DNA of 63,891 bases, counting the filler, from Chrysochromulina tobinii (Eukaryota), in NCBI GenBank assembly GCA_001275005.1. It is 8 parts of 8 records of this genome, joined end to end, with 100 filler letters (N's around TTAATTAATTAA, not from the genome) between each part and the next. Parts side by side here need not be neighbours in the genome. Positions count along the whole stretch, not along the records: positions 1 to 20,497 come from JWZX01000780.1; 7 more parts are not named here. One strand, given 5' to 3'. Below, piece after piece: positions 1,700-56,400 of the stretch (its first letter is position 1; the number at the start of each line of letters is the position of its first letter). The position numbers and the translations under genes were made by a program. The notes beneath the pieces were generated by a model that was not told the origin of the DNA, ran no database searches, and saw only the letters and a list, made by a program, of their open reading frames with translations.

Positions 1700-3329
1700 T
1701 CACCCCCCTTTCTCCCTGGGCGTGGTGCTGGCCCACACCTTCCCATACGGTGTGAGCTGCTGCACTTGCTCGGCGGTGAGGTAGCGCCCGTCGACGAGGG
1801 CCTTCGCCGGGTCACTCGCCACTAGATGTACCTTACCCATGGACTGACGGTCAATCAGTTTCGTCAGTACGTGATCGACGACCCAAGCTCCAATCGCGGG
1901 CGCTCCCATCACAAGGCACGCGCCGAGCAGCTGCGGATAGTGCGCCTTGCTCACTCTGGCCACCTCCGTCCAAAACGGGATCGCGCTGAAAAAGCGTAAC
2001 GGCTCAAACTCGCGCACTTCGTAAACCGCCAAGTGGCCGCGCGACGGGCAAGCTGAGCTGTCGACCTCCTGAACCACGACCTCCATCCATCGCAGGTAGC
2101 GCCTCACGATGTCGCGCTGCGAGACGCCTGTGGGGAAGGATGGGCGCCGTGGTGAGCACTTGCATGCAGGGCAGGATCCATCTTAGGTTCGATGTCGCGC
2201 TGCGACACGCCCTTGGCCAGCAGCTTGGGCACATCCAGCGCGCGAAGGTCGTAGAAGATCACCGGGCGGCCCTCGAGGTCGTGACAAAGGACTTGCATCG
2301 CATGTGGACCCATCGCGTGCTCCAGCGCCGCCTCGGCCGTTGGATCTGCCAGCTTGAGCGCGCCCGGGCGGAGGAGCTCATGGATCCCCTCTTCTTCGCG
2401 CCAGCGCGACGATGCCGCAAAGGCTACCGCGGCCTTGGCCACGTCGCCCTGGTGCTCTTTCAGATAGCGCGCGCCGCTGTGGGCGGAGGGCGGCTGGGCG
2501 CCGAGCTGGGCGCATGCCCCGCAGAGCTTTTCGAGGCTCTGCTCCTCTGGGGTCCTCGGGCTATCCTCGGGCGCCGTGTCCGGCGTCGTCACGAACCAGC
2601 TCGCATTCCTCCAGAGCCCGCCCGACTCCCCGCTGACCCCCTTGAAGCGCAAAGCATTGCGCGCGGCGGGCGCGAGCTCGTTCTCAACGTACCACCGGAT
2701 GCTGGGCCGCGCGAGCCCGATCCCGCCCGCGTCGACCTCCGTGTACACGCCGCCCTCCACCCTGTAGAGCACCCAGTTGCACAGGACGAGGCTCGCCACA
2801 TACTCGCGCGCCTTGCCCTCGTCCGTGTGCGTCGACGGCTCGAAGTTGTGGATGCCGTTCTCGGTGACGACGACGTAGCTCTCGGGCACAGGTGGGCTCA
2901 GGATTCGGAAGAGCTGGTCGAGCACGCCACGAAGCAGCGCCAGCTGGGTACGGCCCTCTGTCGCCTCCTTTGTGGCGAGCTCGTCTCAACACTACCTACC
3001 CGGATGCTCGGGCCGTCGCCGAGCCCGATCCCGCCCGCGTCGATCTCCGTGTACACGCCGCCCTCCACCCTGTAGAGCACCCAGTTGCAGCGGAGCCTGG
3101 CCACAAAGCCGCGCGCCTCGCCCTCGTCCGAGAGCTCCGACAGACCGGTCCCACGAGCGACATGCTCATGGGTCACAAAATTGTGGATGCCTTTCTCGGT
3201 GATGATGACGTAGCGCTGGTGCGGGCCGCCTCCGCCAAAGAGGCTCTTGAATAGATCCGGCACTAGCGAGACCGCTGGAACCGTGAAAGAGGCGTTCGGG
3301 ATGGATGGCATCTGGTCGAGAACCGTCAT
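1700..3329 (-). CDS. CRAL-TRIO/Sec14-like lipid-binding protein with two tandem N-terminal domains; one intron (2128-2210) and an apparent frameshift at ~2985-3000
   Basis: ARYLKEHQGDVAKA..WREEEGI (CRAL-TRIO N), DLEGRPVIFY, HYPQLLG..MGAP (C-terminal); duplicated domain CNWVLYRVEGGVYTE[IV]DAGGIGL; splicing the GC-AG intron joins ORFs 2104-2925 and 1700-2107 in frame. Confidence 0.75.
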
Positions 3330-3755
3330 TTTCAAGCGCCCTTGAACTTGGGCATTTTGCCGAAGCAGAACCCAAAACAGCAAACATTCCTAATTCACAA
3401 CACACCGACCTCAAAGGGTGAAGGGCGGCAACACCTCGCACTCACAGTCGCTTCATTCTCATTCCTTCACAGACAAGGGTTCACACTATTAATTATCTCG
3501 ATCCTTTTCGCCGCGAATCACAGATCGACAGACACGGCACGCACGCGCTACGTAGCCGACACTACTCTGACATGCACTTGCTGAGCGGACTGAAAGGACA
3601 CGGAAGGTCACGCGATATTTCGTTGCGTTGCGTACGTGCGCGCTGATTCCTGATTCGCACGTCATGATGCCAGCACGCAACGCGTCTCGATCGTGATTCG
3701 TGTGCCTTGATATCGGCTACTTATCATCATCATCTCTCCCTGCCTGAGGCCTCGT

Positions 3756-4954
3756 CTACACGCTGCTCATGCTGCTCGACGAGAACATGCCAAACCGGAA
3801 AGAGGCGCGCACCTCGAGCCAATCTCGTGCCGCGCACCGATCGTCGGCAACCATGCGCGTGATGCGGTCCTGCTTCGCATGCTCACGTGCCGCGTAGTCA
3901 CCCACGCGTCTCCACCGACGGAGCGGATCTGCCTTGAGCGCCTGCTGCACCTGATGAGGGAGGCAATCAGCATGCAATCAGTCTCCACCGACGGAGCGGA
4001 TCTGCCTTGAGCGCCTGCTGCACCTGATGAGGAAGGCAATCAGCATGCAATCAGTCTCCACCGACGGAGCGGATCTGCCTTGAGCGCCTGCTGCACCTGA
4101 TGAGGGAGGCACTCAGCGGCGCTTGAGAGACATGCTGAGGGCAGGTCCGAGGACGATTGAAACTCAGAGAGTAACAGTAGCCCATCGGGGGGGTAGCCCG
4201 ATCGGGGGGGAGGGGGTCGGCAGCTCGGGCAGCGCTGTACCTGATGCTGCCAGACGGACACATAGTCACCAGTGGCCGCTGAGAGCTCTGAAGGCTTTGG
4301 AGCGGCCGGCGCCAAGGGCGGCGTGGGCAGCAGGGGCGTCTCGCATCGCGGCATGCCAAAGGGCGTCGTGCCAAGCTCCAGTCGGGTGAGCGTCCGTGAC
4401 TTGATACTGCTCCCCCTCTTGTGTGCATCTGCCGCGGCCGAATGCGGCCGGCTGCGATCGTGGCTGTTGAGCATGTCGGGCAGGCTGGTAGTGCTCGCGC
4501 TCGAGGTGAGAACTCGGCCGACCCGGCTCACAGTACGCGTCTGTGTCGTTGGCGTGAGCAGCTCCGCCAGCGCCTTGCGGGTCTTGTCACTCGCCTTGTC
4601 GGGCGTCGTCGGTGGCGCGGCTCCCTGGTGGTTCTCCTTATTCTCCTTGTTGACCTTGCTCCGAGCCCGAATGATGGAGTCACTGCCCATCTCTACCGTC
4701 GTTGGCGTCACCCACGCATTGGGCAGAACTGGCGCGGACGCGGTGTGCGGCATCTGCGGTGTTGAAGCGAACTGGACGATCTTGGCCACGGAGGAGCTCG
4801 CGCCTGTCGGCGTGCTCGCAATGCATCGAACGCGCGCGATCGGCGTTGGCGCGCTGGCTAGGTTGCGGCTCGTTGGGATCCGCGCGACGACTGGGGCGAC
4901 TGGCAGTGAGTTCGGAGCCTCGCGCTCAGGCAGCACGAAGAATGGCGACTTCAT
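3756..4954 (-). CDS. Hypothetical Pro/Ser/Thr-rich protein, 2 exons (intron 3951-4240)
   Basis: ORF 4040-4954 joins via CAG|GTACAG...CCCTCATCAG|GTG to VQQALKADPLRRWRRVG..., stop 3756-3758; contains KEN motifs. Confidence 0.55.
3908..4110 (-). repeat. Three tandem 73-bp units = 3' splice site + first ~42 nt of exon 2
   Basis: Units start at 3908, 3981, 4054. Confidence 0.95.
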
Positions 4955-5220: not shown

Positions 5221-8200
5221 ATGCTGCTGCGCGCGACCAGCACCCGCTCGGAGGATGTAACCCGGCCGCCGCTGGCGCAGCGCTATCGATCTTCACCTCT
5301 CGCCTCGCCAGAGATGCCCACGGGCATCACCAACATCATCTCCAACGAGGCTGCCGAGCGCTTCTCCTTTTACGGCATGAAGTGCATCCTCGTCGTGTTC
5401 ATGACCTCGCATCTTCGCGACGCGCAGAGGCAGCCGGCCTATCTGAGCGAGAAGGTCGCACTCGTCTACTACCACTCATTCACCAGTGCCGTGTACCTGA
5501 CCCCGCTCGGCGGAGCGCTGCTAGCCGAGGCGGTGCTCGGCAAGTACCGCACGGTCGTGTACCTGTCGCTCGTGTACTGCGGAGGGCACCTCGCTCTCGC
5601 AATCGACGAGACGCGCACCGGTGATGGCCGCTGGGCGCACACGTAGTTGATTGCGTCCGATGGCCACGGATGGCCGCTGATTGCGTCGCGATTGGCGCTG
5701 AGAGCCGCTGATTGCGTCTGATTGCCGCTGAGGGCGCCCTCGCTCGAGCAGGCCTCTTCGTCGGCCTCGCCCTCGTCGCCCTCGGCTCCGGCGGCATCAA
5801 GCCGTGCGTCAGCGCCGTGTTGGGCGACCAGTTCGGCGAACTCAACCAGCACTTGGTGAGCGTCGCCTTGATTGCACTTGATTGTGTACTGGTTTGCTCT
5901 GGATTACAGTGGATTGGTGAGCTCGGCCTTGGTTGAACATGGTTGCTCTCGATTGCACTTGATTGCCTCAGGTGAGCACGGCCTTTGGGTACTTCTATCT
6001 GGCCATCAATCTGGGCGCCTTCACCTCGACGTTACTCACACCCTACCTTCTCGAGCACGCGGGCTCGCATGCGGCCTTTGGCGTGCCAGGTGGTTGCACT
6101 TGATTGCACTCGTTTGCACTTGAGTGTACTTGACGTGGTAGTGCTCACCACGGCGCCCTCGCCCACACACAGGCATCGCCATGGCTCTCGCAACGCTCGC
6201 CTTCTGGAGCGGCCGTCACAAGTACAGACCTCTGATGACCTCTGATGACCTCTGATGGCATGCTGATTGCCATACCGCCGCCGTAGGTACACGCACGTGC
6301 CCCCGAATGCGAGCCGCTTCCTGATGACCTCTGATGACCTCCCTCATCAGGTACACGCACGTGCCCCCGAATGCGAGCCGCTTCCTGCGCAGCACTTGTA
6401 GCCCCGAGGGTGCCCGCGCGCTGTGCAAGCTGATCGGCTTGTTTGGCTTCTTCGCGGTGTATTGGAGCTTGTATGACCAAAGTGGCTCGGCGTGGGTGCT
6501 GCAGGTGAGCGTCTCGGATGGCCCCTGATGGCCTCTGATGGCCTCCCTCATCGCATGCATGTGAGCGGCTCGGAGTGCTTCTGATGGCCTCTGATGGCCT
6601 CTGATGGCCTCTGATGGCCTCCGATGGCCTCTGATGGCTTCTGATGGCCTCTGATGGCCTCTGATGATCACTGATGGCCTCTACTGGCAGGCAGAGAAGT
6701 TGGACAGAAGGTTCCTGGGTGTGGAATGGCTCCCCTCCCAAATCGGGGCGATCAATCCTCTCTTGATCCTCACACTCGTACCGCTCCTGCACGGCGCCGA
6801 CTTTGGCACCCCTCTCGGCGCCGTGTCGGGCGTGGGGCGCTCGGCGTTCTTCGCACGGCTCGGGCTCGTACCACGACGGCGCGTGCGGCTGGTAGGGCTC
6901 TACGAGCTCGTCGCCCGACACGGCGTTCGCGTTACGCCGCTGCGTAAGATCGGCTGCGGGCTCGTGCTCTGCGCGTGCTCGTTCCTGATCCCGCTGCAGG
7001 TGGAGGTTTGGATGGAGGCGAGCGGGTACAATCATAGCGCTGCAGCTCTGGCCGAGTGCAACGGCGCTGTTGGCGACGGCGGCGGCGGCGGTGCGCGTGG
7101 CTGTGGGCTCAGGCCCAGCATCGCATGGCAGGTGGTTGCCTTTGATCACGTGCCCACTGATTGCCCTTGATGAATACTGCTCAGTGAGGCCGAGCATCGC
7201 GCGGCAGCTCCTCGCTGATCTCGTGCCCCCTGATTGCCCTTGATGAATACTGCTCAGTGAGGCCGAGCATCGCGCGGCAGCTCCTCGCTGATCTCGTGCT
7301 CACGCTCGTTGATCTCGTCTCGATCTCGTCTGATCTCGTCTCGATCTCGTCTCGGTTTCGTCTGATCTCGTCTCGATCTCGTCTTGGTTTCGTCTGATCT
7401 CGTCTCGATCTCGTCTCGGTTTCGTCAGCTCGTCGCCTATTTCGTGCTCACTCTTTCGGAGGTGCTCGTCTCCGTCACTGGCCTCGAGTTCAGCTACACG
7501 CAGGCGCCACCGGCCATGAAGAGCATGGTGATGGCATTCTACCTCAGCGCGGTCGCCGCAGGCAATCTGGTCACCGTGGCCATCAATGCGAGCATCCTCA
7601 ACGCTGACGGCTCGAGCAGGTGAGTGCCGCTGCTTGCCGCTGATGGACTACGATGGCTTCTGATTGCTTCTGATAGCATCTCGAGTTCATCCCTGACTGC
7701 ATCTCTGATTGCCTCTGATGTGGCAGTTGGAGTGAGGTCGAGTACTATCGGTTCTTCACACTGATTGCTTCTGATTGCTTCTGATTGCTTCTGATTGCCT
7801 CCGATGTGGCAGTTGGAGTGAGGTCGAGTACTATCGGTTCTTTACACTGATTGCTTCTGATTGCCTCTGATGTGGCAGTTGGAGTGAGGTCGAGTACTAT
7901 CGGTTCTTTACACTGATTGCTTCTGATTGCTTCTGATTGCTTCTGATTGCCTCTGATGTGGCAGTTGGAGTGAGGTCGAGTACTATCGGTTCTTTACACT
8001 GATTGCTTCTGATTTACTTCTGATTGCTTCTGATTGCCTCTGATGTGGCAGTTGGAGTGAGGTCGAGTACTATCGGTTCTTTACACTGATTTCTTCTGAT
8101 TGCTTCTGATTGCCTCTGATGTGGCAGTTGGAGTGAGGTCGAGTACTATCGGTTCTTCACACTGATTGCTTCTGATTGCTTATGATTGCTTCTGATTGCT

Positions 8201-8560
8201 TCTGATTGCCTCTGATGTGGCAGTTGGAGTGAGGTCGAGTACTATCGGTTCTTCACGCTGCTCATGTTCGTCACCGCCGCCGCCTTCGTGCCGTACGCCG
8301 CGTGCTACAAGGAGAAGAGATACTTTCAAGGCCATGGGATGGACGAGATAGAGACGAGATCGGACGAGATGGAGACGAGAACAGACGAGATAGAGACGAG
8401 ATTTCAAGGCCATGGGACGGACGCGGACGCGGACGGTCCCGAGGCGGGGGCGGGGCCGCAGCCGACGTGGCGATCGTCGCAGCCGCTGCTGCCCGATGAG
8501 GTCAAGCTCGCGACGACTCGACCACGAGACGCTATAGTCGCTCGACACGAGACGCTTTAG
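5221..8560 (+). CDS. POT/PTR family proton-dependent oligopeptide transporter (multi-exon; start may be 5083)
   Basis: [12 protein letters not shown] (ExxERF), [41 protein letters not shown] motifs; introns ~5621-5751, 5856-5971, 6090-6172, 6222-6350, 6505-6690, 7132-7428, 7620-8223. Confidence 0.92.
7715..8260 (+). repeat. Seven copies of acceptor + exon start (GATGTGGCAG|TTGGAGTGAGGTCGAGTACTATCGGTTCTTYAC) separated by variable numbers of CTGATTGCTT decamers
   Basis: Direct reading; only the last copy (exon from 8224) continues into the ORF. Confidence 0.95.
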
Positions 8561-9186: not shown

Positions 9187-11115
9187 TCAGGTCGCCGAAT
9201 GCGGCGACACGCTGCCAGCATTGTCTCGCGCCGAGATCACGACCTCGCGGAGGGGGATCACGGCCTCCCCACTGGTGCTTCTCCCCCGAGCGTCGCTGGA
9301 CCTGCCCGGAGAGAGCGTCGTCCCGGGCGTTGGAGAGGGCCCCCCTCTTGAACGAGGCGAGAGGAGCGCGGCTCCGAGCCCAGTGCCGGAGCGTGTCATC
9401 TCGCGCTCGAGTGCCCACGACGGCGGCAGTGAGGCGGAGAGGCTAGGCGACGAGGTGACCTGATGAGGGAGCTCATCATGTACCATCAGAGGCGATCAGA
9501 GGCAATCAGATGCGATCAGAGGCCATCAGAGGCGTACTGAGGAGCGTTGGGAGGTGGCCAATTAGGGAGGCAATTAGGGAGGCGATCAGGGAGGCGTACT
9601 GAGGAGCGTTGGGAGGTGGCCAGCGTGGCCAGCGTGGCTACATGCATCTGGGACGAGATCAACGAGGGCGAGGTGCATCCGGGTCGAGATTGCATCTGGG
9701 ACGAGATCGACGATGGCGAGGTGAAGGATTCGGGTCCTCTGTTGAAGGCGAACTCGGAGCCAAGCTCCATCTCCGTCTCCAGCCGCGCGCGCTCGACGAT
9801 TGCAGCTGATGAGAGAGGCAGTTGGGGAAGCAATTAGGGAGGCCATCAGGGAGGCAATTAGGGAGGCAATTAGGGAGGCAATCATCTCCGTCTCCAGCCG
9901 CGCGATATCGACGATTGCAGCAGCAGCGAGATGCGAGCACATCCCGACAGAGGCCATCCGAGGCCATCCGCGGCCATCCGAGGCCATCCGAGGCCATCCG
10001 AGGCCATCCGCGGCCATCCGAGGCCATCCGAGGCACTCACCAGCGCGGATCTCATTATTAGGGAGGCAATTAGGGAGGCAACTAGGGAGGCACTCACCAG
10101 CGCGGATCTCCCGCTCGCGCGCCACTCGATGGCACAGCCCCGCATTCTCGGCCTGCAGCCGCGAGAGCTCGTGCTGCAGAGTTTCGTTACCCTTGCGCTG
10201 CTCTTCACACTCTCTCCGATAACGCTCCTGCTGCTCGCCCAGCCGATCGATCTCGCGCGTGAGGTGCGAGACGAGGAGATGCGTTCGCGCCGCCTCCTCG
10301 TCCGCCGCCGCGACGGTGCGCCCACGACGGCGCTCCTCGTCCGCGGCTGCCGAGGCCGTCGCCGCCGACGGCGACGCGCCGGCTGGCGGCGCCGTGTACT
10401 CGCACACGTGGGGTGGTGGCGGCAGGTCCTCCGCGGGGGCCATCCCCGCCGCCGCCGTCACCGCCGCCCCCATCCCCGCCGCTCCGCCGCCGCCGCCGAG
10501 GCGGCTGTCTGCGGCGGCGGCATCGGCGGCGTGGCCAGTCCAGCGCTGCAGGTGCCCCTGGATGCTCTGCAGGATCGACGACGTGTTCTCGCGCAATCTC
10601 GTCTCAAGGGCGCGCTTCTCATCGAGGACGGCGCCGAGCTGCTTCTGCAGCTTGTTCACGATGTACTCCTGCTCCTGCTCGAGCTGGATCTCAAGGTGGA
10701 CCTTCTCTTCCTTGACCTTCTGGAGCTTCTTGGTCAGCGCATTCGTGATCATCTCCTCCTCCACCTCCACCTGCCGCGCGAGCTCCTCCTTCTCCTGCTG
10801 GAGCGCCTCGAGCCTCTTCATGAGTTTGTTGGTGATGTACTCCTCCTCCTGCTCGGCCTGGACCTGCAACTGCCCCTGCAGCTGCGTCTGACGGTCGAGC
10901 TGCACCTGCAGCCGCGCTCGAGCTGATTTCTCGCGCTCGAGCTGAAGGAGCGCGCTCTGCAGCGCCTGCTGAAGCTCAGGCACAGACGCGAGCGCCAAAG
11001 GCACCGAAGCGAGGCTATCGGTCTCGGAGGCGGAGTCGGGCGCCTCTGACGGCACGGCAGACGACTCCGACGTGACCCGTTGCACAAGGTCAGGACGAGA
11101 CTCAGGCGTCGACAT
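9187..11115 (-). CDS. CCDC6/H4-like coiled-coil protein (DUF2046), introns 9806-10097 and 9460-9599
   Basis: AEQEEEYITNKLMKRL..EEEMITNALTKKL..LEQEQEYIVNKLQKQL repeats typical of CCDC6; splicing keeps the frame to the stop at 9187. Confidence 0.8.
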
Positions 11116-11291: not shown

Positions 11292-13880
11292 ATGCGGACG
11301 CATATGCTTCTAGCTCTGCTCACATTGCGTGCCGCCTCGGGCTTCTACCTGCCTGGCGTGGCGCCTCGCGAGTACCTGGATGGAGAGAAGGTCGAGGTTA
11401 AGGTCAACAAGCTCACATCTACCGTCACGCAGGTGCGCTCTGCCCACGGCCAGCGCCTTCGCCATGGCCGGCGCTCTGGCCTGCTATCGACGCGTACGCC
11501 TGCACCCGCCCTGAACAGCTGCCGTACGACTACTATAAGCTTGCCTTTTGCAAGCCCAAGGAGCTCATCAACGCGGTCGAGAACCTCGGCGAGGTCCTTC
11601 ACGGCTCGGTGATCCAGAACTCGCCGTATCAGCTCTTTGCGCAGAAGCAAGACTTCAAGGTGCTCTGCAAACAGGATCTGGACGCGAAGCAGGTGGCCGA
11701 GTTTGGGAAGCGGATTGGCGAGGAGTACCGCGTGCAGCTCATCATGGACAACCTGCCCGCGGCCACGCGCATGATCTCCGAGCTGCCCAATGGAAAGACG
11801 GTCTACATGTACGACCGTGGCTACAGGTTGGGCTTCATGGGAGCCAAGGAGTTTCCTGGCACGATCCCAAAGACGCCGTACCTGAACAACCACCTGCGCT
11901 TCATCATCAAGTACCACAAGGACGCCAAGTTCGAAGGCGCGCGCCTCGTCGGCTTCGAGGTCGAGGCCTTCTCCGTGAAGCACACCTACAAAGGCAAGTG
12001 GGGCGTGGACGCGAGCCTCACCTCGGTGCCTCTGTCGCCGGACCTGCCACCCCAGCCGATCGTGGAGGCGGGCGAGTACATCTTCACGTACGACGTGCAG
12101 TGGGAGGAGTCACCTATCCGGTGCGACTCGCGATGATCGCGCCTAGACCTCCCCACATGGGTGATTGCCTCTCTCATTCTCTCATTGCATGCTGATTGCG
12201 TGGGGTAGGAGTCACTCGTCCGGTGCGCCTGATTGCCTCTTCTCATTGCATGCTGATTGCGTCGGATTGCGCTGCATGCAGGTGGGCTTCGCGCTGGGAC
12301 CTCTACCTCTACATGGGTGACGACCAGATCCACTGGTTTTCGATCCTCAACTCGCTCGCCATCGTGCTGCTGCTCACGGGTACGCGCTTCGGCTCGGATG
12401 GCCTCTGATGGCCTCAGATAGGTTCTGAGTGGCTCTGAGTGGCTCTGAGTGGCTCTGAGTGGCTCTGAGTGGCTCTGAGTGGCTCTGAGTGGCTCTGAGT
12501 GCGTTTCCATTTTCCGCCCTCATCAGGCATCGTGGCGATGATCATGATGCGCACGCTGCGGCGCGACCTCAACCGTTACAACTCGGTCGAGGAGAAGGAG
12601 GAGTTGGCAGACGAGAGTGGCTGGAAGCTCGTACATGGCGATGTGCTGCGCCCGCCGCCGCTGCCCCTGCTTCTCTCGTCGTCGGTGGGGACTGGCATGC
12701 AATTGCTCTTTATGGCCATCATCTCGATCTTCTGCGCGATGCTCGGTTTCCTCTCTCCCGCCAACCGCGGCGGCCTTCTCACTGCGACGCTGCTGCTCTT
12801 CGTGTTGATGGGCGTGCCTGCGGGCTACTACGGCTCGCTCCTCTACAAGTCCATCAAGGGCTCGCAGTGGAAGTCGTTGACCGCTTCGACCGCCCTCCTG
12901 TACCCAGGCGTCATCTTCCTCCTCTTCTTCTGCCTCAACCTCTTCATATGGGGCTGCGGCTCGTCTGCCGCTGTGCCCTTCACCACCATGCTTGCCCTGA
13001 TCTGCATGTGGTTCTGCATCTCCGTCCCCCTCGTCTTTCTCGGCGCGTTCTTCGGCTTCCAGACGACCCTGCCCGAGCCGCCGGTGCGCACACGATCGAG
13101 ATCGCACGCCAAGGACTGCCGCATGCAAGTGCTCACCACGGCGCCATCTCTTCCCCACAGGTGCGCACGAACGAGATCGCACGCCATGTACCGCTGCAGG
13201 CGTGGTACATGGGGTTGCCGTGCACGATGGCGGTGGGCGGCATCTTGCCGTTCGGCGCCGTGTTCATTGAGCTCTTCTTCATCATGAGCTCTGTCTGGCT
13301 GCAGCGCTTCTACTACGTCTTCGGCTTCCTCGCGCTTGTGATCTTCATCCTGCTGCTCACGTGCGCCGAGATCTCGATAGTCCTCTGCTACTTCCAGCTC
13401 TGCAACGAGGATTATCACTGGTGGTGGCGCTCCTTCCTAAACTCGGGCGCGGCAGGCGGCTACTTGCTTGGCTACTCCGCCATCTACTTCCATACACAGC
13501 TTGACATGGTCGGTTTCACACCGACGCTCCTCTACTTTGGGTGTGAACGCCCCCCGTGTGCTGTGGAAGATTGCCTTTGGGTCTCCCCCGCGTGCCTCTC
13601 TGATAGCCCCGATCACCTCCCTCCTCAGGCACACGTTGATTGCCACTGATTACCACTGATTGCCACTGATTGCCACTGAGTGCCACTGATTGCACCCCTC
13701 CTCAGGCACATGTTGATTGCCACTGATTCCACTGATTGCCACTGATTGCCACGGATTGCACCCCTCCTCAGGTACATGTTGATCGCCGCCATCATCTTCG
13801 CGCTGATGACGGGTACAGTTGGTTTCATGGCCGCGTGGTGGTTCGTGTGGAAGATCTTCTCGGCCGTTAAGGTCGACTAG
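11292..13880 (+). CDS. TM9SF: Transmembrane 9 superfamily (EMP70/nonaspanin) protein
   Basis: Signal peptide then [61 protein letters not shown]-terminal KVD; introns 11433-11518, 12122-12282, 12380-12526, 13084-13160, 13541-13771. Confidence 0.95.
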
Positions 13881-20597: not shown

Positions 20598-23500
20598 GTT
20601 CCGCAGCGCCCCCGCCGCGTTCTCCTTTTGGCCATCCGTGCCGCTCTGCACCAGCGTCACGAGCGGCGCGATCGCGCCAGCCTGCGCGATCAAGACCTGG
20701 TTCTCGGCATTTTTGAACGCGAGGTTCCGCAGCGCCCCCGCCGCGTGCTCCTTTTGGCCAGCCGTGCCGCTCTGCACCAGTGTCACGAGCGGCGCGATCG
20801 CGCCAGCCTGCGCGATCAAGACCTTGTTCTCATCGTTGCCCGCGAGGTTCCCCAGCGTCCCCGCCGCCTGCTCCTTTTGGCCATCCGTGCCGCTCTGCAC
20901 CAGCGTCACGAGCGGCGCGATGGCGCCAGCCTGCACAATCAAGACTTCATTCTCGGCGTTGATCGCGAGGTTCGCCAGCGCATCCGCCGCGTACTCCTTT
21001 TGGCCATCCGTGCCGCTCTGCACCAGCGTCACGAGCGGCGCGATCGCGCCAGCCTGCACAATCAAGACTTCGTTCTCATCGTTGCACGCGAGGTTCCGCA
21101 GCGCATCCGCCGCGTACTCCTTTTGGCCAGCCGTGCCGCTCTGCACCAGCGTCACGAGCGGCGCGATCGCGCCAGCCTGCGCGATCAAGACCTGATTCTC
21201 ATCGTTGCACGCGAGGATCGCCAGCGCACCCGCCGCATACTCCTTTTGGCCAGCCGTGCCGCTCTGCACCAGCGTCACGAGCGGCGCGATGGCGCCTGCC
21301 TGCGCGATCAAGACCTGGTTCTCGGCGTTGTTGGCCGCGAGGTTCCACAGCGCATCCGCCGCGTACTCCTTTTGGCCAGCCGTGCCGCTCTGCACCAGCG
21401 TCACGAGCGGCGAGATCGCGCCAGCCTGCGCGATCAAGACCTGGTTCTCATCGTTGCCCGCGAGGCTCGCCAGCGCACCCGCCGCGTGCTCCTTTTGGCC
21501 AGCCGTGCCGCTCTGCACCAGTGTCACGAGCGGCGCGATCGCGCCAGCCTGCGCGATCAAGACCTTGTTCTCGGTGTTGTTGGCCGCGAAGTTCCACAGC
21601 GCCCCCGCCGCCTGCTCCTTTTGGCCAGCCGTGCCGCTCTGCAACAACGTCACAAGCGGCGCAGTCGCGCCAGCGTGCGCAATCAAGACCTGGTTCTCGG
21701 CGTTGATCGCGAGGTTCCGCAGCGCCGCCGCTGCCTGCTCCTTTTGGCCATCCGTGCCGCTCTGCACCAGCGTCACGAGCGGCGCGATCGCGCCAGCCTG
21801 CGCGATCAAGACCTGGTACTCGGCGTTGGCCGCGAGGTTCCACAGCGCCCCCGCCGCCCGCTCCTTTTGGCCAGCCGTGCCGCTCTGCACCAGCGTCACG
21901 AGCGGCGCGATCGCGCCAGCCTGCGCGATCAAGACCTTGTTCTCGGCGATCATCGCGAGCCTCCGCAGCGCCCCCGCCGCCTGCTCCTTTTGGCCATCCG
22001 TGCCGCTCTGCACCAGCGTCACGAGCGGCGAGATCGCGCCAGCCTGCGCGATCAAGACCTTGTTCTCGGCATTGGCCGCGAGGTTCCAGAGCGTTGCCGC
22101 CGCCAGCTCCTTTTGGCCATCCGTGCCGCTCTGCACCAGTGTCGCGAGCGGCGCGATCGCGCCAGCCTGCGCGATCAAGACCTTGTTCTCGGCGATCATC
22201 GCGAGCCTCCGCAGCGCCCCCGCCGCCTGTTCCTTTTGGCCATCCGTGCCGCTCTGCACCAGCGTCACGAGGGGCGAGATCGCGCCCGCCCGCGCGATCA
22301 AGACCTGGTACTCGGCGTTGATCGCGAGGTTCGCCAGCGCCCCCGCCGCGTACTCCTTTTGGCCATCCGTGCCGCTCTGCACCAGCGTCACGAGCAGCGC
22401 GATCGCGCCAGCCTGCGCGATCGAGACCTGGTTCTCGGCGTTGAGCGCGAGGTTCCCCAGCGCCCCCGCCGCCTGCTCCTTTTGGCCGGCCGTGCCGCTC
22501 TGCAACAACGTCACAAGCGGCGCAATCGCGCCAGCCTGCGCGATCACGACCTTGTTCTCGGCGTTCATCGCGAGCCTCCGCAGCGCCTTCGCCGCCTGTT
22601 CCTTCTGGCCATCCGTGCCGCTCTGCACCAGCGTCACAAGCGGCGCGATCGCGCCTGCCTGCGCGATCAAGACCTGGTTCTCAACATAGGCCGCGAGGTT
22701 CCCCAGCGTTGCCGCCGCCTGCTCCTTTTGGCCATCCGTGCCGCTCTGCACCAGCGTCACGAGGGGCGCGATCGCGCCAGCCTGCGCGATCAAGACCTTA
22801 TTCTCGGCGTTGACCGCGAGGTTCCACAGCGTCCCCGCCGCGTTCTCCTTTTGGACACCCGTGCCGCTCTGCACCAGCGTCACGAGGGGCGAGATGGCGC
22901 CAGCCTGCGCGATCAAGACCTTGTTCTCGGCGTTTGTCGCGAGGTTCCGCAGCGCCCCCGCCGCCTGCTCCTTTTGGCCATCCGTGCCGCTCTGCACCAG
23001 CGTCACAAGCGGCGCGATCGCGCCAGCCTGCACAATCAAGACCTTGTTCTCGGCGTTTGTTGCGAGGCTCCGCAGCGCACGCGCCGCCTCCGCCCCGGCC
23101 GCTGGGTCTTGGGCCGTGAGCATCGCCACGAGCGGCACGATTCCGCCCGCCCTCGCAATCGCCACCCGCGACTCATTGTCGCGCATGTCAGCCAGCGCTC
23201 CGGCCGCATCGGCGCTGCTGTTGCGCACCTGCTGGACCAGCCGCTGCAGCCGCTCGTCCTTCGAGAGCGCCGGCGCATCTGCGCCCGTGCCCACGCCCGC
23301 ACCACCACGCGATGGCATCGTTGGCATCTCTGGCCAAGTAGATCTTCCACCATCAATGGCCATCATTCGGCGTAAGTCGCGATCTCGCGCAATCTCCGCG
23401 GCATCTCGTGTGGTGTAAAAGAGCAGCGTATCCCGCATCTCCTCCACCTCGATCGTCTGGACAAACTGCGATGCGTGTCTGTCCTCAACCGCATGAGCTT

Positions 23501-25914
23501 CCGCGGCTGCTTCGCCCTGGTCGAAGCGAAACGAACGCACCCTCGGCGGCTCCAGACGAATAGCAACCATTTCGCCACGGATCCCGTGCGCGGGCAGCCC
23601 GCCAATGTCCGACGGGTACGCCGAGAACGCGCGCATCCCAAGACGGTTGATCGGCGACGTCTGATCCGCCCCATCAAAGTACACGTACAGATCCGGGTAC
23701 GTGGCACGCGCTGTGTAGGCTTTGAGCCCGAGGACACGTCGCCAGCCTCGGCTTGCCTGCAGGATGGCCATCTCCTGCACCTCTGTGGCCGCTGGGAAGG
23801 GCTCGGGAGCCACCGACACCGGGATCGCATCGCGAGCAGCCTCGAGTGGGCAAGGGCTAATCTGGAGGGCCTTCCCCCTTCTCGACGAGGCGGGAGGCGG
23901 CGTGGAAAGCACTTGCATGTTGGCGGGCTTGATCAAGATGGGGGCGCCGTCGCGCATGCCTGGCTTCTGCCGGTCGACCAGCTGCACCTCCCATCGCTCG
24001 ACACCGCCCGTCATATTCCGACGGTCCACAACGCCCATGCGCCCATTCAGCTCTGGCCGTGACGCGAGGCCGCACAGAGTGACACGCGCACCCACCCAAG
24101 GGGCGATGGCGCTGGCGGCATCCGCCTTTCGTGCCGAAGGCGGCCGGATGGCTGTTGTCGCCCCCTCCGCCTGTGCTGCGCTCTCAATGGGGATCCCTTG
24201 CGCAGCCGCGAGGCCATACAGCCGCCGCGCCTCAGCCTCGTTCTTTGGTCCGCCTAGTTCTTGCTCGTGCATGGCCCCAAGACTGTACTGTGCCTCAGCA
24301 AGCCCTTGCGCGGCCGCGAGGCCATACAGCCGCCGCGCCTCAACCTCGTCCTTTTGTCCGCCATGCCCTTGCTCGTACATGGCCCCAAGAATTTGCTGTG
24401 CATCAGCATGCCCCTGCGCGGCCGCGAGGCCAAACAGCCGCCGCGCCTCTAGCAAATCCTGCGGTCCGCCCTGCCCGTGCGCGTGCATGATGCCGAGGTT
24501 GCACTGCGCTTTAGCATTCCCCTGCGCAGCCGCGAGGCCATACAGCCGCCGCGCCTCCGGCAAGTCTTGCGGTCCGCCCTGCCCGTGCGTGTACATGATC
24601 GCGAGGTTGTGCTGCGCTTTAGCATGCCCCTGCGCGGCTGCGAGGCCAAACAGCCGCCGCGCCTCAACCTCGTCCTTGGTTCCGCCACGCCCTTCATCGT
24701 GCATGAGTCCGAGGTTGTACTGCGCGTCAGCATCCCCCTGTGCGGCCGCGAGGCCATACAGCCGCTGCGCCTCTGCCTCGTCCTTTGGTCCGCATCGCCC
24801 GTGCTCGTGCATGATTCCGAGGTTGAACTGCGCGTCAGCATGCCCTTGCGCAGCCGCGAGGCCATACAGCCGCCGCGCCTCTAGCAAGTCTTGCGGTCCG
24901 CCCTGCCCTTCGCGGTGCATGACCCCGAGGTTGTACTGCGCTTTAGCATCCCCCTGCGCAGCCGCGAGGCCATACAGCCGCCGCGCCTCTAGCAAATCCT
25001 GCGGTCCGCCTAGTCCTTGCTCGTGCATGATTCCGAGGTTTTGCTGTGCCTCAGCATGCCCTTGCGCAGCCGCGAGGCCATACAGCCGCCGCGCCTCTAG
25101 CAAATCCTGCGGTCCGCCCTGCCCGTGCGTGTACATGATCCCGAGGTTGTGCTGCGAATCAGGATCCCCCTGCATAGCTGCGAGGCCAAACAGCCGCCGC
25201 GCCTCAACCTCGTCCTTGGTTCCGCCACGCCCTTCATCGTGCATGAGTCCGAGGTTGAACTGCGCGTCAGCATTCCCCTGTGCAGCCGCGAGGCCATAAA
25301 GCCGCCGCGCCTCTGCCTCGTCCTTTGGTCCGCGTCGCCCGTGCTCGTGCATGATTCCGAGGTAATGCTGTGCCTCAGCAAGCCCTTGCGCAGCCGCAAG
25401 GCCATATAGCCGCCGCGCCTCAGCCTCCGTTCCTTTCGGTCCCGCCAATCCCTTTCTCGTGCATGATTCCGAGATTGTGCTGAGCCCCAGCATACCCTTG
25501 CGCAGCCGCAAGGCGAAACAGCCGCCGCGCCTCAACCTCGTCCTTTGGTCCGCCTAGCCCTTGCAGGAACATGACCCCGAGGTCGTACTGAGCCTCAGCA
25601 TACCCTTGCGCAGCCAAGGTGCGAAGCTGCTGCCGCTCCGCCTCCGCCTTGTCCCTTGGTATGCCACGTCCTTGCGAGTGCTTGGAGGCTCCATCAGAGG
25701 ATCGATCCGACGAAGGCGACGGTTTCGGTGCAGACATCGCTGGCGATGGCTTCGGCGCCATATGCAGCGACGTGGGCTGCACGGCGAGCATCTCGCCGTT
25801 CTCGCAGCGCACCTTCCACCGACCGCGGGATTCGACCCATTCCACCACGTCGGCAACGCGACCGTTGAGCTCGGGCCGAGCCACCAGTCCCTCCAGCACG
25901 ACGCGAGCACCCAC
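20598..25914 (-). CDS. Giant repeat protein: SH3-like domain, ~13 Sel1 repeats, second SH3-like domain, linker domain, >=21 armadillo repeats (3'-truncated; apparent frameshift at ~25425-25445)
   Basis: 36-aa AQxNLGxMxxxGxGGxxDxxEARRLYGLAAAQG units; 41-aa AGAIAPLVTLVQSGTDGQKEQAAGALxNLA units; GARVxLxGLxxRPELNG twice. Confidence 0.9.
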
Positions 25915-46695: not shown

Positions 46696-49158
46696 TCACT
46701 TCTGGCTACTCTCTAAACTGTTACTATCCGGATACATGGCCCCCTTCATGAGCGAAAGCCCGTCAATAACGCCAAAGTCGGCATCGGTGGCCGCGCGCAC
46801 GCTCGCGAGATCGACGCCAGATGCAATCTCGCGCAGCGTGAGGCCGGAGCCGTCGGGTGCGACGTCGAAGACGCCGAGTTCGGTGATGAGCATCGACACG
46901 CAGCGTGCGCCGGTGAGGGGCAACGTGCAGTGGCGGAGCACCTTCGAACGCCCTCTCTTGTCGCAGTGCTCCATCGTGACGATCACCTTGGCGGGAGAGG
47001 AGACGAGATCCATCGCGCCGCCCATGCCTTTGACGAGCTTGCCAGGGATAAGGTAGTTGGCCATGTCGCCGTTAGCAGCGACCTGCGCCCGAGCCGAGGG
47101 TGGTCGCAATCAGAGGCGCAATCTGAGGCGCAATCAGAGTCGCAATCAGAGGCGCAATCAGAGGCGCAATCAGACCTGCGCCCGAGCCGAGGGTGGTGAC
47201 GTCGCAGGAGCAATCAGTCTCAATCAGAGGCGCAATCAGAGGCGCAATCAGAGGCGCAATCAGACCTGCATCGAGCCGAGGATGGTCACGTCGCAGTGGC
47301 AATCAGTCGCAATCAGAGGCGCAATCAGCGGCGCAATCAGACCTGCATCGAGCCGAGGATGGTCACGTCGCAGGAGCAATCAGTCGCAATCAGAGGCGCA
47401 ATCAGAGGCGCAATCATGGGCTATCAGAGTCCATCAAGCCTGAGCCCGAGCTGAGGTTGGGCCTCATCAGGCGCAATCAGTCGCAATCAGAGGCGCAATC
47501 AGAGGCGCAATCAGACCTGCATCGAGCCGAGGATGGTCACGTCGCAGTGGCCGCCGCGGATCATTCCAAAAGAGGCATCCGCGCTGAAGTACGAAGCGCC
47601 GGGCAGTGCAGTCACCTGAGTAGGGACGTACTCCGATACACTCAGCCGCAATCAGCCGCAATCAGCCGCAATCAGTCGCACTCAGCCACCATCAGATGCA
47701 ATCAGCCGCCATCAGAGGCACTCAGCTCACCGTCTGCTTGCCCGCGTTGATCAGATCGGCATCCTCTTGCCCCCTTGTGGGGAAAGGGCCGACGCCGAGC
47801 ATCCCGTTCTCGCTCTGCAACGTGATCGAGACGCCTTCGGGAATGAAGTTGCTCACCTGATGAGGGAAGCCATCATAGGTCATCAGAGGTCATCGGAGGT
47901 CATCGGAGGTCATCAGAGGTCATCAGAGGTCATCAGAGGTCATCAGAGGTCATCAGAGGTCATCAGAGGTCATCAGGCGCTCACGAGGGTCGGCAGCCCG
48001 ATGCCCAGGTTGACGTAATCTCCGTCAGCGAGCTCGAGCGCCGCGCGCCGAGCAATCCGCTCTCGGTCCGGCGTCATGGCGTCCCCTTCGGTCCGTTCAC
48101 CGGCGAGGGTGAGGCGCTCGATACAACGCTCGGACGGTCCCTGCACAATCCGCTCGACGAAGAGGCGCCATCAGCGGGCGCAATCAGATGGCGTAATCAG
48201 CCGGCGCAATCAGCCGGCGCCATCAGCGGCGCCATCAGCGGGCGCCATCAGAGGGCGCAATCAGTGAGGTGCAATCAGAGGGCGCCATCACCTGCACGAT
48301 CCGGTCGACGAAGATCCCCGGCGTGTGGATGTCGTTTGGGTCGAGCGTCCCCGCGGGCACGAGCTCCTCCACCTGCCTCGAGGAGGCAATTAGTGGCAAT
48401 CAGAGGCAATTAGTGGCAATCAGAGGCAATTAGAGGCAATCAGGAGCGGGCACGAGCTCCTCCACCTCCGCGATGGTGATCTTGCCCGCCGTCGCCACCG
48501 CCGGGTTGTGATTACGCGAGGTCATGCGATAGATAAGGTTGCCCTCGGTGTCGCCCTTCCACGCGCGCACGAGGGCAAAGTCGCCAGGCAGCGCCCGCTC
48601 CATGATGTACTCCTTACCCTCGAAGAGCTGCGACGCGCGTGGCGTCGAGCCCTTGATGACCTTGCCCGAGCCATCGGATGCGTATCGAACTGGCATGTTG
48701 CCGTGATGAACGAGGGTTCCGACACCGGTGGCGGTGAAGAAGGCCGGGATGCCCGCGCCGGCCGCGCGCATCCGCTCGGCCAGCGTGCCCATCGGCACCA
48801 GCTCGACATCGATCTCGCCGCTCAGGAATTGCTTCTCGAAGAGAGCGTTCTCGCCCACGTACGAGCCGATCATCTTGGAGATCTGCTTGCCCTGGAAGAG
48901 CAGGCCGAGGCCACGCTCGCTCGTGCCCACATTGGAGCTCACCACCGTCAGGTCGCCCACACCCTTCTTTTGCAGCGCAGCGATCAGGTTCTCAGGCACG
49001 CCCGTAAGGCCGAAGCCGCCGACGAGCAGCGTCGCGCCCGACGGCACGTCGGCGACGGCATCGGCGGCCGACGCGAAGACCTTGCCGCCGACCGGCACCG
49101 TCGACGAGCGATGCCGTCGCGCTGCGGCCAACGTCGTCATCAAGGCGCGACGCACCAT
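46696..49158 (-). CDS. OXCT1: Succinyl-CoA:3-oxoacid CoA transferase (fused A+B), mitochondrial-type presequence, 5 introns
   Basis: [52 protein letters not shown] (catalytic Glu), [10 protein letters not shown]. Confidence 0.95.
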
Positions 49159-53400: not shown

Positions 53401-56400
53401 GGAGCCGTTGCCACCTCGATTAAGCCAAGCCTTGACAGACAATCATGTGATGTTGAATCAGCTCGACCTGGGCGTGATCGATTGGATGGTAGCCTCGTAC
53501 AAGAAATGCGAATCCGATCAGGAGCGTGATTTTGTGCTCAAGATTATTCTGCAGACCCTCGTCCATGGGTGGCCCCAGTCTTCCAAGCAGGCGGACTGTG
53601 GACGTTACAAGTACTGGAACAGACTGGCACTCGTGCCGAGGAGTCGGCAAGCATTGCAAGCAGCGCTACGGGAGTACTCCGTTAACTACAAACGAGAGTT
53701 ACAAACGAGAGTCTCCGATTACACAGAATTCCTTCATAGTGCGGATAACCAATTCTACCAACAGGTGGAAGCGTGGGCACGGGAGGATGCCATCCTACGC
53801 GAGGCCAAGGAGAAGCAACGGCAGGCGCTCGAGGAGAAGAAGCAGGCCGAAATCAAGGAGCGGGAGGAACGCAGGAAGGCGGTTGAAGCGAGGCAGGCGA
53901 AAGGGAATGTTTCGTCAAGGCTCGAGGACGCTAACCCGGGGAAGAAGAAACCCTGGAGTGTGGATGAATTGGGTTCGGAGCTCTTCCGCCTTGCATTCGA
54001 GGGCGGAGATACGCGACAGCTCGAGCCCCTTCTCAACAAGGTCAGCAACCTGAGCCTCAAGAAGCGGACCAAGGTGCGCGAGTGGGTCGACGATTCGGGT
54101 GCGACGCCGCTGTATGCGGCCGCGTACAACGGCAACGTCGACGCACTCAAGCTGCTCCTACGTGCGCAGTTTGCGCCCGACATGTTCCACACCAAAGATG
54201 GCGTGACGCCCCTCTACGCGGCGTGTGACCGTGGTCATCTGGCGACGGTGAAGGAGCTCGTCAAGGGGCGTGCGGACCCGATGCTCAGCATGCGGGACAC
54301 CGCCTTCACCCCCTTGACCATTGCCGAGACCATCGCCGAGACCAAGGGGACGAAGAGTGTGCACCAGTCGATCGTGGAGCTGCTGCGTGCACACGTGAAC
54401 TCGCCGCAGGTGCTTACGGCAGCGCCGACCAAAAGCTCCGCTGTGCCGACCATGAAGACCCTCACGAAGCTTTTCGAGGACGAGGGTGAGGAGGGGGTCA
54501 AGAACAAGAAGCAACTCGAGGAACTGAAGTTGCAACTCGAGCAAGTCGGGAAGAACAAGAAGCAACTCGAGCAACTCGGGAAGAACAAGTTTGAGAAACA
54601 AAGGGCTTGGGGAGGAGGAGGAGTGATCGAGGAGGAGGGGGAGGAGGGGGAGGAGGGGGAGGAAGCGGAGGGCAGGAAGGAGGGGGAGAACAGGGAGGAC
54701 AGGGAGGACAGAGAGGAGGGGGAGGGCAGGGAGGAGGGTGGTTTCTTCACAAGCGTCGAAACACGTTCGAATGGAAAGGAGGGGGAGGAGCAGCAGCCAG
54801 AGGAGAGCCACTTTCATGTGGAGCAGCAGAGCATCGGGGAGGCAGAGCGTGAGGTGGAGCGAGTCGCTCATCGTCCGGCCTTGAGCTCGGGATTGAGCTC
54901 GGGATTGAGCTCAGCCACGCTCGACAGTGCGACCGTGCGTCCGGCCGAGTCCTTCGACTCCCTCATCACGGCCCTTCACTCTAGTGCCTCAAGCTCTGAT
55001 GTGTTGCGTGCTGCTCTGAAGCAGCTCGACTGTGTCGACGAGGACAGCCTCGATGACGCTCGCAAGAGGCGCTGGCGTGAGGCTCTGAGTTGGGGCCAAG
55101 AGCACCTCGACCACCTGACGATGAAGGAGGCCACCTCGCTCTACGCCCTGGAATGCGAGCTGCCTGTCGACCTTGGACCGAAAAGCTGCTTCTCGGCCCA
55201 CACCATTCTCGTGGTGGACAATAGCGCCTCGATGCGGCAGGTCGATGTGCACACGGGCACCGCTGAGGGCGACATCTCACGGACAGAGGCGGCTAAGCGG
55301 CTACTCACGACACACTTCCTCAAGACGCAGATCGATGCGGGCGCGCAGGCGCACGAGCGCGTGTCGCTGATCAAGATCCAGAGGGGTTCGACGAGGCCCC
55401 CGTTTGCCCTCTTCCCGCTCGATCATAGCCTCGCTGACCGCATCCTGCGCGCCATCGACGAGCCTCGAGGGCATGGCGACTACCTGCCCGCACTCGAGCT
55501 GCTCGCCAAGCTGGTGGAGCTCACAGCCCCTTTCATGAAGGAGAGCGCCAAGACGTCAATCCTCTTCTTCTCCGACGGCAAGCCCTCCGATCACATCGAT
55601 GAGCGCGTGCTGCCCGCGCACCTACGGCAGGCGCTGTCGGAGCTGCACAAGGCAGTGCAGCGGAGCGGCAGTTACATCGAGCAGTTCTCGCTCCTTGGCT
55701 TTGGCGAGGCCGATGAGGCGATGCTGCGCATGATGGCAGAGGCGTACCCCGCGCGCGTGGCTGAGTACCGCGCCGTGAGCGGGCCAGAGGGGTACAAGGC
55801 GCTTGAGACGGCCGTGACCACCTTTGCCTCGTCTGTGGCGGTCTCTCGCCTCTCGTCGGTCTCAGTGACCTTGGACAAGAAGCAGCGTGCGTTGCGTCGC
55901 GTCGACCGCTCCCTGGGCGAGCGCTTCTACCGTTACGAGGACTGCAAGGTGCTGCTCCCGCCAGAGAGGCTAATTCACCTCCATGATTGCCTCTGATATA
56001 CCCGAACGACTCTGATAGCCTCTGATGACCTCTGGTGGCCTATTGATCGCATCCCTCATCAGGTGCTGCTCCCGCCAGAGAGGCTCGGGGACTTTAACTC
56101 GGATCTGCTCAGGCTGCCTGAAGGGCACACCCTTCTGATCTCGTCCAAGCTACTTGGCCACGGCGGCGAGCGCAACGCGTTCGTAGCCTTCTTCCTGTCC
56201 AAGAACAGCTTCACCACTGAAGATGAGGAGTGGGTGGTCAAGGAGAGTCGACACGAGCGCGCGGAGCACGAAGATGACGACTTTCATCGCAAGGCGCTCG
56301 TCACGCAGCATGCGGCGCACATGCTCGCGAAGCGCTTCAACGACGATGCCGAGGCTCTCGAGATAGACGGCCTTCCGAGCGTCTCGTACATGAACCACTG

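Follow-up and report, generated by a model that had tools for sequence, protein, structure and literature searches.

How does an intron come to contain a perfect copy of the beginning of the exon that follows it? The question is raised by positions 6222-6350 of a 63,891-nt stretch of Chrysochromulina tobinii DNA (GCA_001275005.1; hereafter the window), which consists of several contigs joined by N spacers and has a GC content of ~63%. The preliminary description of this stretch proposed that a 3' end in the exon copy had annealed to a repeat template and been extended, as in telomerase healing or template switching. According to the available excerpt of PMC4202315, it is not known where most newly gained introns come from, and the locus bears on that wider problem.

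Structure of the intron at 6222-6350

RNA contigs identify 6222-6350 (+) as a single GT..AG intron of 129 nt that is removed in one piece. The splice joint 6221 -> 6351 is present in RNA runs X13 (short side 19 letters) and X14 (52) and was not seen in runs X16 and X17; RNA cover of the gene is thin. The intron is built of two intron-sized units of 65 and 64 nt (Table 1). Splicing at the AG of the first unit (6285-6286) would shorten the open reading frame to 268 aa, and the stretch 6280-6319 is free of any RNA contig cover. Identity between the exon copy and the exon start extends over 37 nt, or 39 with the preceding AG, after which the intron copy reads ATGACCT and the exon CGCAGCA, so that the exon copy passing at CTG into filler is as first described. 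The overlap at 6323 amounts to 3 nt by the period of the array itself and 4 by a k-mer method.

The 10-bp-repeat filler tail ends in CCCTCATCAG. Its last 20 nt can fold into a 7-bp hairpin (-7.1 kcal/mol, z -2.3), and its last 16 nt have no other occurrence and no exact donor within the window. The two tails of the intron have just 2 nt in common, so plain tandem copying of the first unit does not account for the second. Allele L088 shares the layout, with three extra array units, and the presence of the same structure in the independent assemblies L062 and L088 shows that it is not an assembly artefact.

Table 1. Coordinates of the host gene, of the parts of intron 6222-6350 and of comparable introns in the window
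Feature	Positions	Strand	Evidence
POT/PTR2 peptide transporter, 8 exons, 7 GT..AG introns, 597-aa model	5221..8560	+	gene model
Upstream exon	6173..6221	+	RNA contig pieces
GTACA, 5-nt copy of next exon's start, donor in use	6222..6226	+	sequence
10-bp array, 3.1 copies (6.1 in allele L088)	6227..6257	+	sequence
Tail of first unit, AG at 6285-6286	6258..6286	+	sequence
Perfect 37-nt copy of exon start 6351-6387, duplicated target	6287..6323	+	sequence
CTG common to exon copy and filler, microhomology	6321..6323	+	sequence
Filler, two CTGAT-type units and acceptor in use	6321..6350	+	sequence, RNA
Real exon	6351..6504	+	RNA contigs, gene model
Intron 7, repeated exon-copy/filler units, junction 7760	7620..8223	+	sequence
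Intron of 73-nt units, exon-copy/filler junction 3981	3908..4117	-	sequence
Intron of 12-bp units, exon-copy/filler junction 9883	9807..9905	-	sequence
Intron in a presumably TM9SF-like gene, exon-copy/filler junction 13640	13629..13772	+	sequence
Intron opening with 23-nt copy of next exon, junction 55971	55949..56062	+	sequence, model
Mirror form, intron closing with 23-nt copy of upstream exon's end	48141..48291	-	sequence

Similarity matches of the host gene carry PF00854, and a PTR2 match on exon 6352-6504 (E 4.9e-05) lies under the curated cut-off. POT relatives of 60-79% identity continue without a gap across the intron site, which suggests that the intron was gained in this lineage; the relatives are possibly transcript-derived, and some of them run into apparent introns of their own at other positions. 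Two relatives, proteins P0002 and P0003, enter a low-complexity repeat at a point where this gene has no intron, as would be expected of another short-period intron filler. The named closest matches of the first exon of the gene are bacterial, and the gene may be of bacterial origin with all seven introns acquired since.

Elsewhere in the window, exon 17773-18621 matches, with 100% identity, a protein of Chrysochromulina tobinii named AP-4 subunit. The coding stretch 2672-2974 has a diverged duplicate at 3040-3340; contigs of DNA and RNA runs contain a joint back over 303 nt (2974 -> 2672) with two C>T differences, and the number of units at 2672-3340 may differ from that in the window. Long coding tandem repeats occupy 20598-23089 (period 123 nt), 24195-25615 (108) and 51162-52475 (33).

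Comparable introns in the window

All six exon-copy/filler junctions named at the outset (6323, 7760, 9883, 3981, 55971 and 13640) were found again at the coordinates given. The join at 7760 reads CAC-a-CTG, with one mismatch to the exon, and its intron is 421 nt shorter in allele L061. At 13640 the overlap is TTGAT, and RNA contigs pick up again at 13771, the last acceptor of that intron. The overlaps at 9883 (TG), 3981 (AC; 2 nt by k-mer, 1 by the array's own period) and 55971 (CT, with filler recognised just 12 nt further on) are singly at chance level, the null probability of at least 2 nt being ~0.3; the excess appears in the set as a whole.

Several further arrangements were noted. The minus-strand intron 47100-47520, in a gene that we take to be CoA-transferase-like, contains, besides 12-bp arrays, the end of the upstream exon with its donor four times over. 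At 8324-8417 (+) two copies of a 16-nt direct repeat, at 8324 and 8402, enclose a GACGAGAT-type array, which in reverse complement corresponds to array 7311-7426 in the same gene. The arrangement may be a GC..AG intron of 78 nt whose filler is antisense and whose two splice sites were both supplied by the duplicate. A second family of dispersed introns, sharing the core GTGCTCACCACGGCGC, occurs at 2160 (-) and at 6140, 13128, 13995, 19046 and 19100 (+); its core has 67 exact copies across all matches listed, overlapping loci counted too, and the member at ~13083-13161 opens with a degenerate copy of the next exon.

Prevalence of exon copies with filler tails

A pattern scan for filler gave at least 124 loci from 127 stretches (748,443 nt); loci were chosen by the filler pattern, and all counts rest on the window and these loci. 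Among the matches listed there are 228 distinct filler acceptors, 212 of them with 300 nt upstream, and a copy of the next exon's start precedes 98 of those 212, against 171 of 4227 swapped controls (4%). Of 133 listed acceptors outside the pattern choice, 98 are followed by GT or GC. Exact flanking repeats of at least 12 nt accompany 196 of 441 arrays in the matches listed (51 of 1319 controls), and 39 cases there show the mirror form, with a copy of the upstream exon's end closing the intron. Duplications in the matches listed measure 11-60 nt, copies scoring <10 having been omitted. Many introns of this alga are made up of a brief copy of the following exon and a repeat tail, joined through a few common letters; tails of this type close hundreds of its introns.

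In the matches listed, the frame is open in 42 of 46 cases with the intron removed and in 13 of 46 with it kept, and no AG stands before the donor in 26 of the 46. At L003 (-) 10410 the duplicate starts with GG after AG, and exact canonical splicing is not obvious.

Overlap at the junctions

Sixty-eight clean cases were obtained from the 228 acceptors by removing those with no copy, a score <10, an exon start other than GT or GC, or a filler-like exon. Copy and filler abut in 29 of these 68 listed cases, are separated by 1-36 nt in 37, and in two no filler is recognised. For the abutting junctions in the matches listed, mean overlap is 3.76 nt as against 1.1-1.2 nt in simulated blunt joins, whose highest mean in 500 runs (1.86) falls below the observed value; overlaps of at least 3 nt make up 21 of 29, compared with 15.5% in the simulations. 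Taken without conditioning, all 68 listed cases average 3.41 nt versus 2.99 +/- 0.12 (P=0.0005), a modest excess of 0.4 nt, and 11 overlap by at least 5 nt where 5.3 are expected (P=0.015). The suggestion that junction overlaps exceed chance therefore stands for the 29 abutting junctions (3.8 vs 1.2 nt), whereas 39 of the 68 listed cases do not abut and the overall excess is small.

Overlap is strongest where the copy directly follows coding sequence (16 of 46 listed cases abut, mean 4.7 nt, 15 of the 16 with at least 3 nt) and weaker where it follows an older acceptor (13 of 22 abut, mean 2.6 nt, in the matches listed). In the mirror form, 18 of 39 listed cases abut with a mean of 4.8 vs 1.45 nt, a value inflated by three overlaps of 8-14 nt from filler-like copies. 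The gaps are taken up by unusual unit variants, by a continuation of the copy that has diverged, or by short pieces re-copied locally, and patchwork re-priming is seen, for example, at L007 6466.

At the return junction there is no excess of homology in the matches listed (2.5 vs 2.5 nt), and the mean back-match there, 1.6 nt, is accounted for by the donor consensus. Plain microhomology switching does not predict this lack of homology. The overlap itself could also stem from later microhomology deletions trimming longer copies, and would look alike if filler were made from the AG end on the other strand. Even so, the initial proposal that a 3' end annealed to a repeat template, by template switching, gains support from an overlap above chance in both direct and mirror geometry.

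Unit diversity and the origin of the filler

The matches listed contain 467 unit types among 1876 units, most starting CTGAT, a start that resembles the branch-point consensus CTRAY. Arrays are homogeneous inside, the top unit making up 56% against 24% expected in the matches listed. Read et al. 2013 are said to have described 10-11 bp tandem repeats in Emiliania huxleyi introns, short-period arrays in a haptophyte as here, reportedly with neither a duplication footprint nor an origin route for them.

Likeness between arrays is local. In the matches listed, an uncommon unit is shared by 9.8% of 225 array pairs 250-600 nt apart, compared with 2.1% between loci, and beyond 600 nt the excess has almost gone. 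In 10 of 33 listed cases, where 1.65 are expected, the best local donor matches better than foreign acceptors do (p<=0.05); six of these donors lie upstream and four downstream, two of the cases being alleles of one gene, and the other 23 of the 33 are without a clear local donor. To judge from these matches, the templates appear to be numerous and often local, which excludes a single telomerase-like template.

The telomerase half of the original suggestion, in which telomerase or an enzyme like it would restore a broken exon end from a single RNA template, consequently fares badly, and we regard it as very improbable. Short tandem units are indeed added at microhomology, and a single CCCTAA occurs in 17 of 477 listed arrays, but two consecutive telomere hexamers occur in none of the 477. 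The haptophyte telomere repeat is given as TTAGGG in the portion of PMC13518057 available. The diversity of units, the sharing with neighbouring introns and the existence of a mirror form all speak against telomerase healing.

Where the filler stops bears on the nature of the template. Among 65 listed non-nested rows, 38 have an offset <=0, and in most of these the filler runs to the acceptor AG, overlapping by 0-5 nt. In about five listed cases, four among these 38 and another at a second tail, filler stops at AG despite non-donor letters next to it, and in these cases a GT lies within the duplicate. Arrays within 1.5 kb of each other are on the same strand in 847 listed pairs against 12, opposite-strand donor matches in the matches listed are at background level, and fillers of the mirror form start at GT. 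These features would suit RNA-templated capture, in which the 3' tail of an intron excised from the same or a different transcript (in the mirror form its 5' head) is reverse-transcribed into a nick or break, the fixed end being a splice site and the variable end being joined by microhomology. Such a route is conceivable, though we think it rather unlikely. Much the same restrained credence attaches to the version in which the part copied is the lariat tail with its acceptor and branch-like motifs.

Selection for splicing, however, accounts for most of the exact ends and for the strand, and the terminal 20-nt hairpin could halt DNA synthesis at the same point; the stop at AG may reflect either a new strand letting go at the hairpin or an RNA template that ends there. 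A few possible run-ons of 1-4 nt beyond AG (L006, L070 2985, L027 12698 and L028 3897) favour a DNA template, yet are ambiguous.

Differences between alleles

Twenty-five aligned locus pairs were used to compare alleles. A 79-nt intron of L015 with a perfect 28-nt duplicate is missing in L024 (98.2% identity), and 132 nt, comprising two units, of L039 are missing in L113 (99.8% identity). Neighbouring introns are still present in the shorter alleles, which are therefore DNA. The fillers of both introns match neighbouring introns of the same gene; that of L015 shares with an intron lying 438 nt upstream a stretch of 21 nt, which exceeds what it shares with every other listed locus. Further locus pairs differ in unit number. 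Two absences were left uncounted: L041/L119, which concerns the second family and in which L119 may be RNA-derived, and L026/L091 (83% identity). L015 and L024 also differ by two non-coding insertions of 101 and 200 nt with short direct repeats and no CTGAT filler.

Because the duplicates are perfect, we infer that the allele differences represent intron gain, precise loss in the shorter alleles being the possible alternative. Since two introns are missing from near-identical gene copies, new introns are likely still arising in this alga.

Slippage alone is another possible account. In it, a tandem duplication reaching back to the tail of a neighbouring intron would be followed by deletion between GT words; a variant invokes precise loss of the inner intron through cDNA. 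Some cases would then renew an old intron and add none. It agrees with the local donors, with the variation in unit number between alleles and with the 11 of 22 listed nested cases that have at least 16 nt of tail in common with the preceding unit. It is harder to reconcile with the dissimilar tails of 6222-6350, the lack of excess homology at the return junction and the absence of whole introns from alleles, and we judge it unlikely as a sole explanation.

Comparison with described routes of intron gain

These comparisons draw on excerpts of the cited papers. In the text available of PMC4202315, neointrons of Daphnia pulex, attributed to staggered double-strand break repair, likewise carry a direct repeat of the adjacent exon end, show allelic presence and absence, and undergo repeated secondary events inside young introns. 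The Daphnia repeats given there measure 4-12 bp, with most insert sources unknown, as opposed to 11-60 nt here; moreover, unlike in that account, the filler here is an array that bears splice signals and can be traced to other introns, in many cases adjoining ones, with measured microhomology. By analogy, the process would work like Daphnia-type break-repair intron gain with filler, with longer duplications and a traceable filler.

Tandem genomic duplication of an AGGT segment and intron transposition, as set out in the excerpt of PMC3443670, also involve a duplicated exon that gives a splice site and the reuse of an intron. The main form here differs from them in that only one site comes from the duplicate, and in combining a partial copy of the donor intron with a target duplication. 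Polymerase-theta end joining resembles our cases in its microhomology, nearby-copied insertions, re-priming and duplication; the excerpt of PMC8654963 does not give it as an intron source, polymerase theta is a candidate enzyme here, and the exact stop at AG is left unexplained by it.

Introners, as far as the excerpts of PMC9860276 and bioRxiv 10.1101/2020.10.14.339549 describe them, are likewise dispersed related introns in which element and duplicate each contribute one splice site, 3' and 5' respectively or the other way round, as here. A non-autonomous transposon of this kind, with short inverted ends CTGATGA..TCATCAG and a target duplication, would fit a dispersed family whose filler words reach a summed depth of ~26,000 in a DNA run against ~50 for single-copy DNA; introners are recorded for Chrysochromulina sp. 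and Emiliania in the available part of PMC9860276. The inverted 7-mers, a 7-bp inversion inside the last 20 nt, would also suit it; the 5' side is only an array unit. On the other hand, the introns here have no fixed length or 5' end: starts vary, units are diverse and copies in the matches listed are not similar end to end. The duplications lack a class-fixed size, unlike the 3-9 nt of introners in the excerpted descriptions, and neither junction overlap nor local donors are hallmarks of a transposase. In the listed supplement rows of PMC9860276, C. tobinii appears once, as a screened genome. Altogether an introner origin seems improbable. Replitrons were considered and set aside, since the target duplications are not canonical for them in the available text of PMC10288648. 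Viral contigs contained no match to the filler pattern.

In the open full texts searched, we found no description of the process in haptophytes, and the available portions of PMC4580454 (the C. tobin genome paper), PMC8379373, PMC12130899, PMC13518057 and bioRxiv 10.1101/2024.05.26.595999 contain no mention of it.

Proposed mechanism and significance

On balance we lean towards microhomology-guided template switching, in which repair would copy the tail of an existing intron and duplicate 11-60 nt of its target. The reading is based on the duplication, the overlap, splicing, the allele differences and the likeness to neighbouring introns. A 3' end in an exon would pair over 2-8 nt with the 10-12 bp CTGAT array of a different intron, in many cases a same-strand intron of the same gene, and a repair polymerase would copy the array up to the acceptor CCCTCATCAG. 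Rejoining 11-60 nt upstream, with little or no homology, would then duplicate that stretch. Inserts would persist where the duplicate opens with GT or GC and the unit measures at least ~60 nt, since exact splicing would then remove them. Subsequent slippage would multiply the units. Every new intron would be an additional template, and introns could thus spread without an encoded transposase. The enzyme, the direction of synthesis and the choice between a DNA and an RNA template are inferred parts of this proposal; the two templates predict different end points for the filler.

A bolder view, to which we give only limited credence, is that excised introns template repair at their own gene, the lariat tail being reverse-transcribed into a nearby exon, and that a transposon-free chain reaction of this kind built the short-repeat introns of haptophytes.

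The false exon copies call for caution with gene callers. The phenomenon is real and general, and is likely ongoing. In part of the cases the source of an intron can be read here from the sequence, alleles of this cultured alga differ with respect to the process, and no transposon is needed; for these reasons the origin of new introns becomes testable. If the proposal is true, the short-period intron repeats of haptophytes would be explained.
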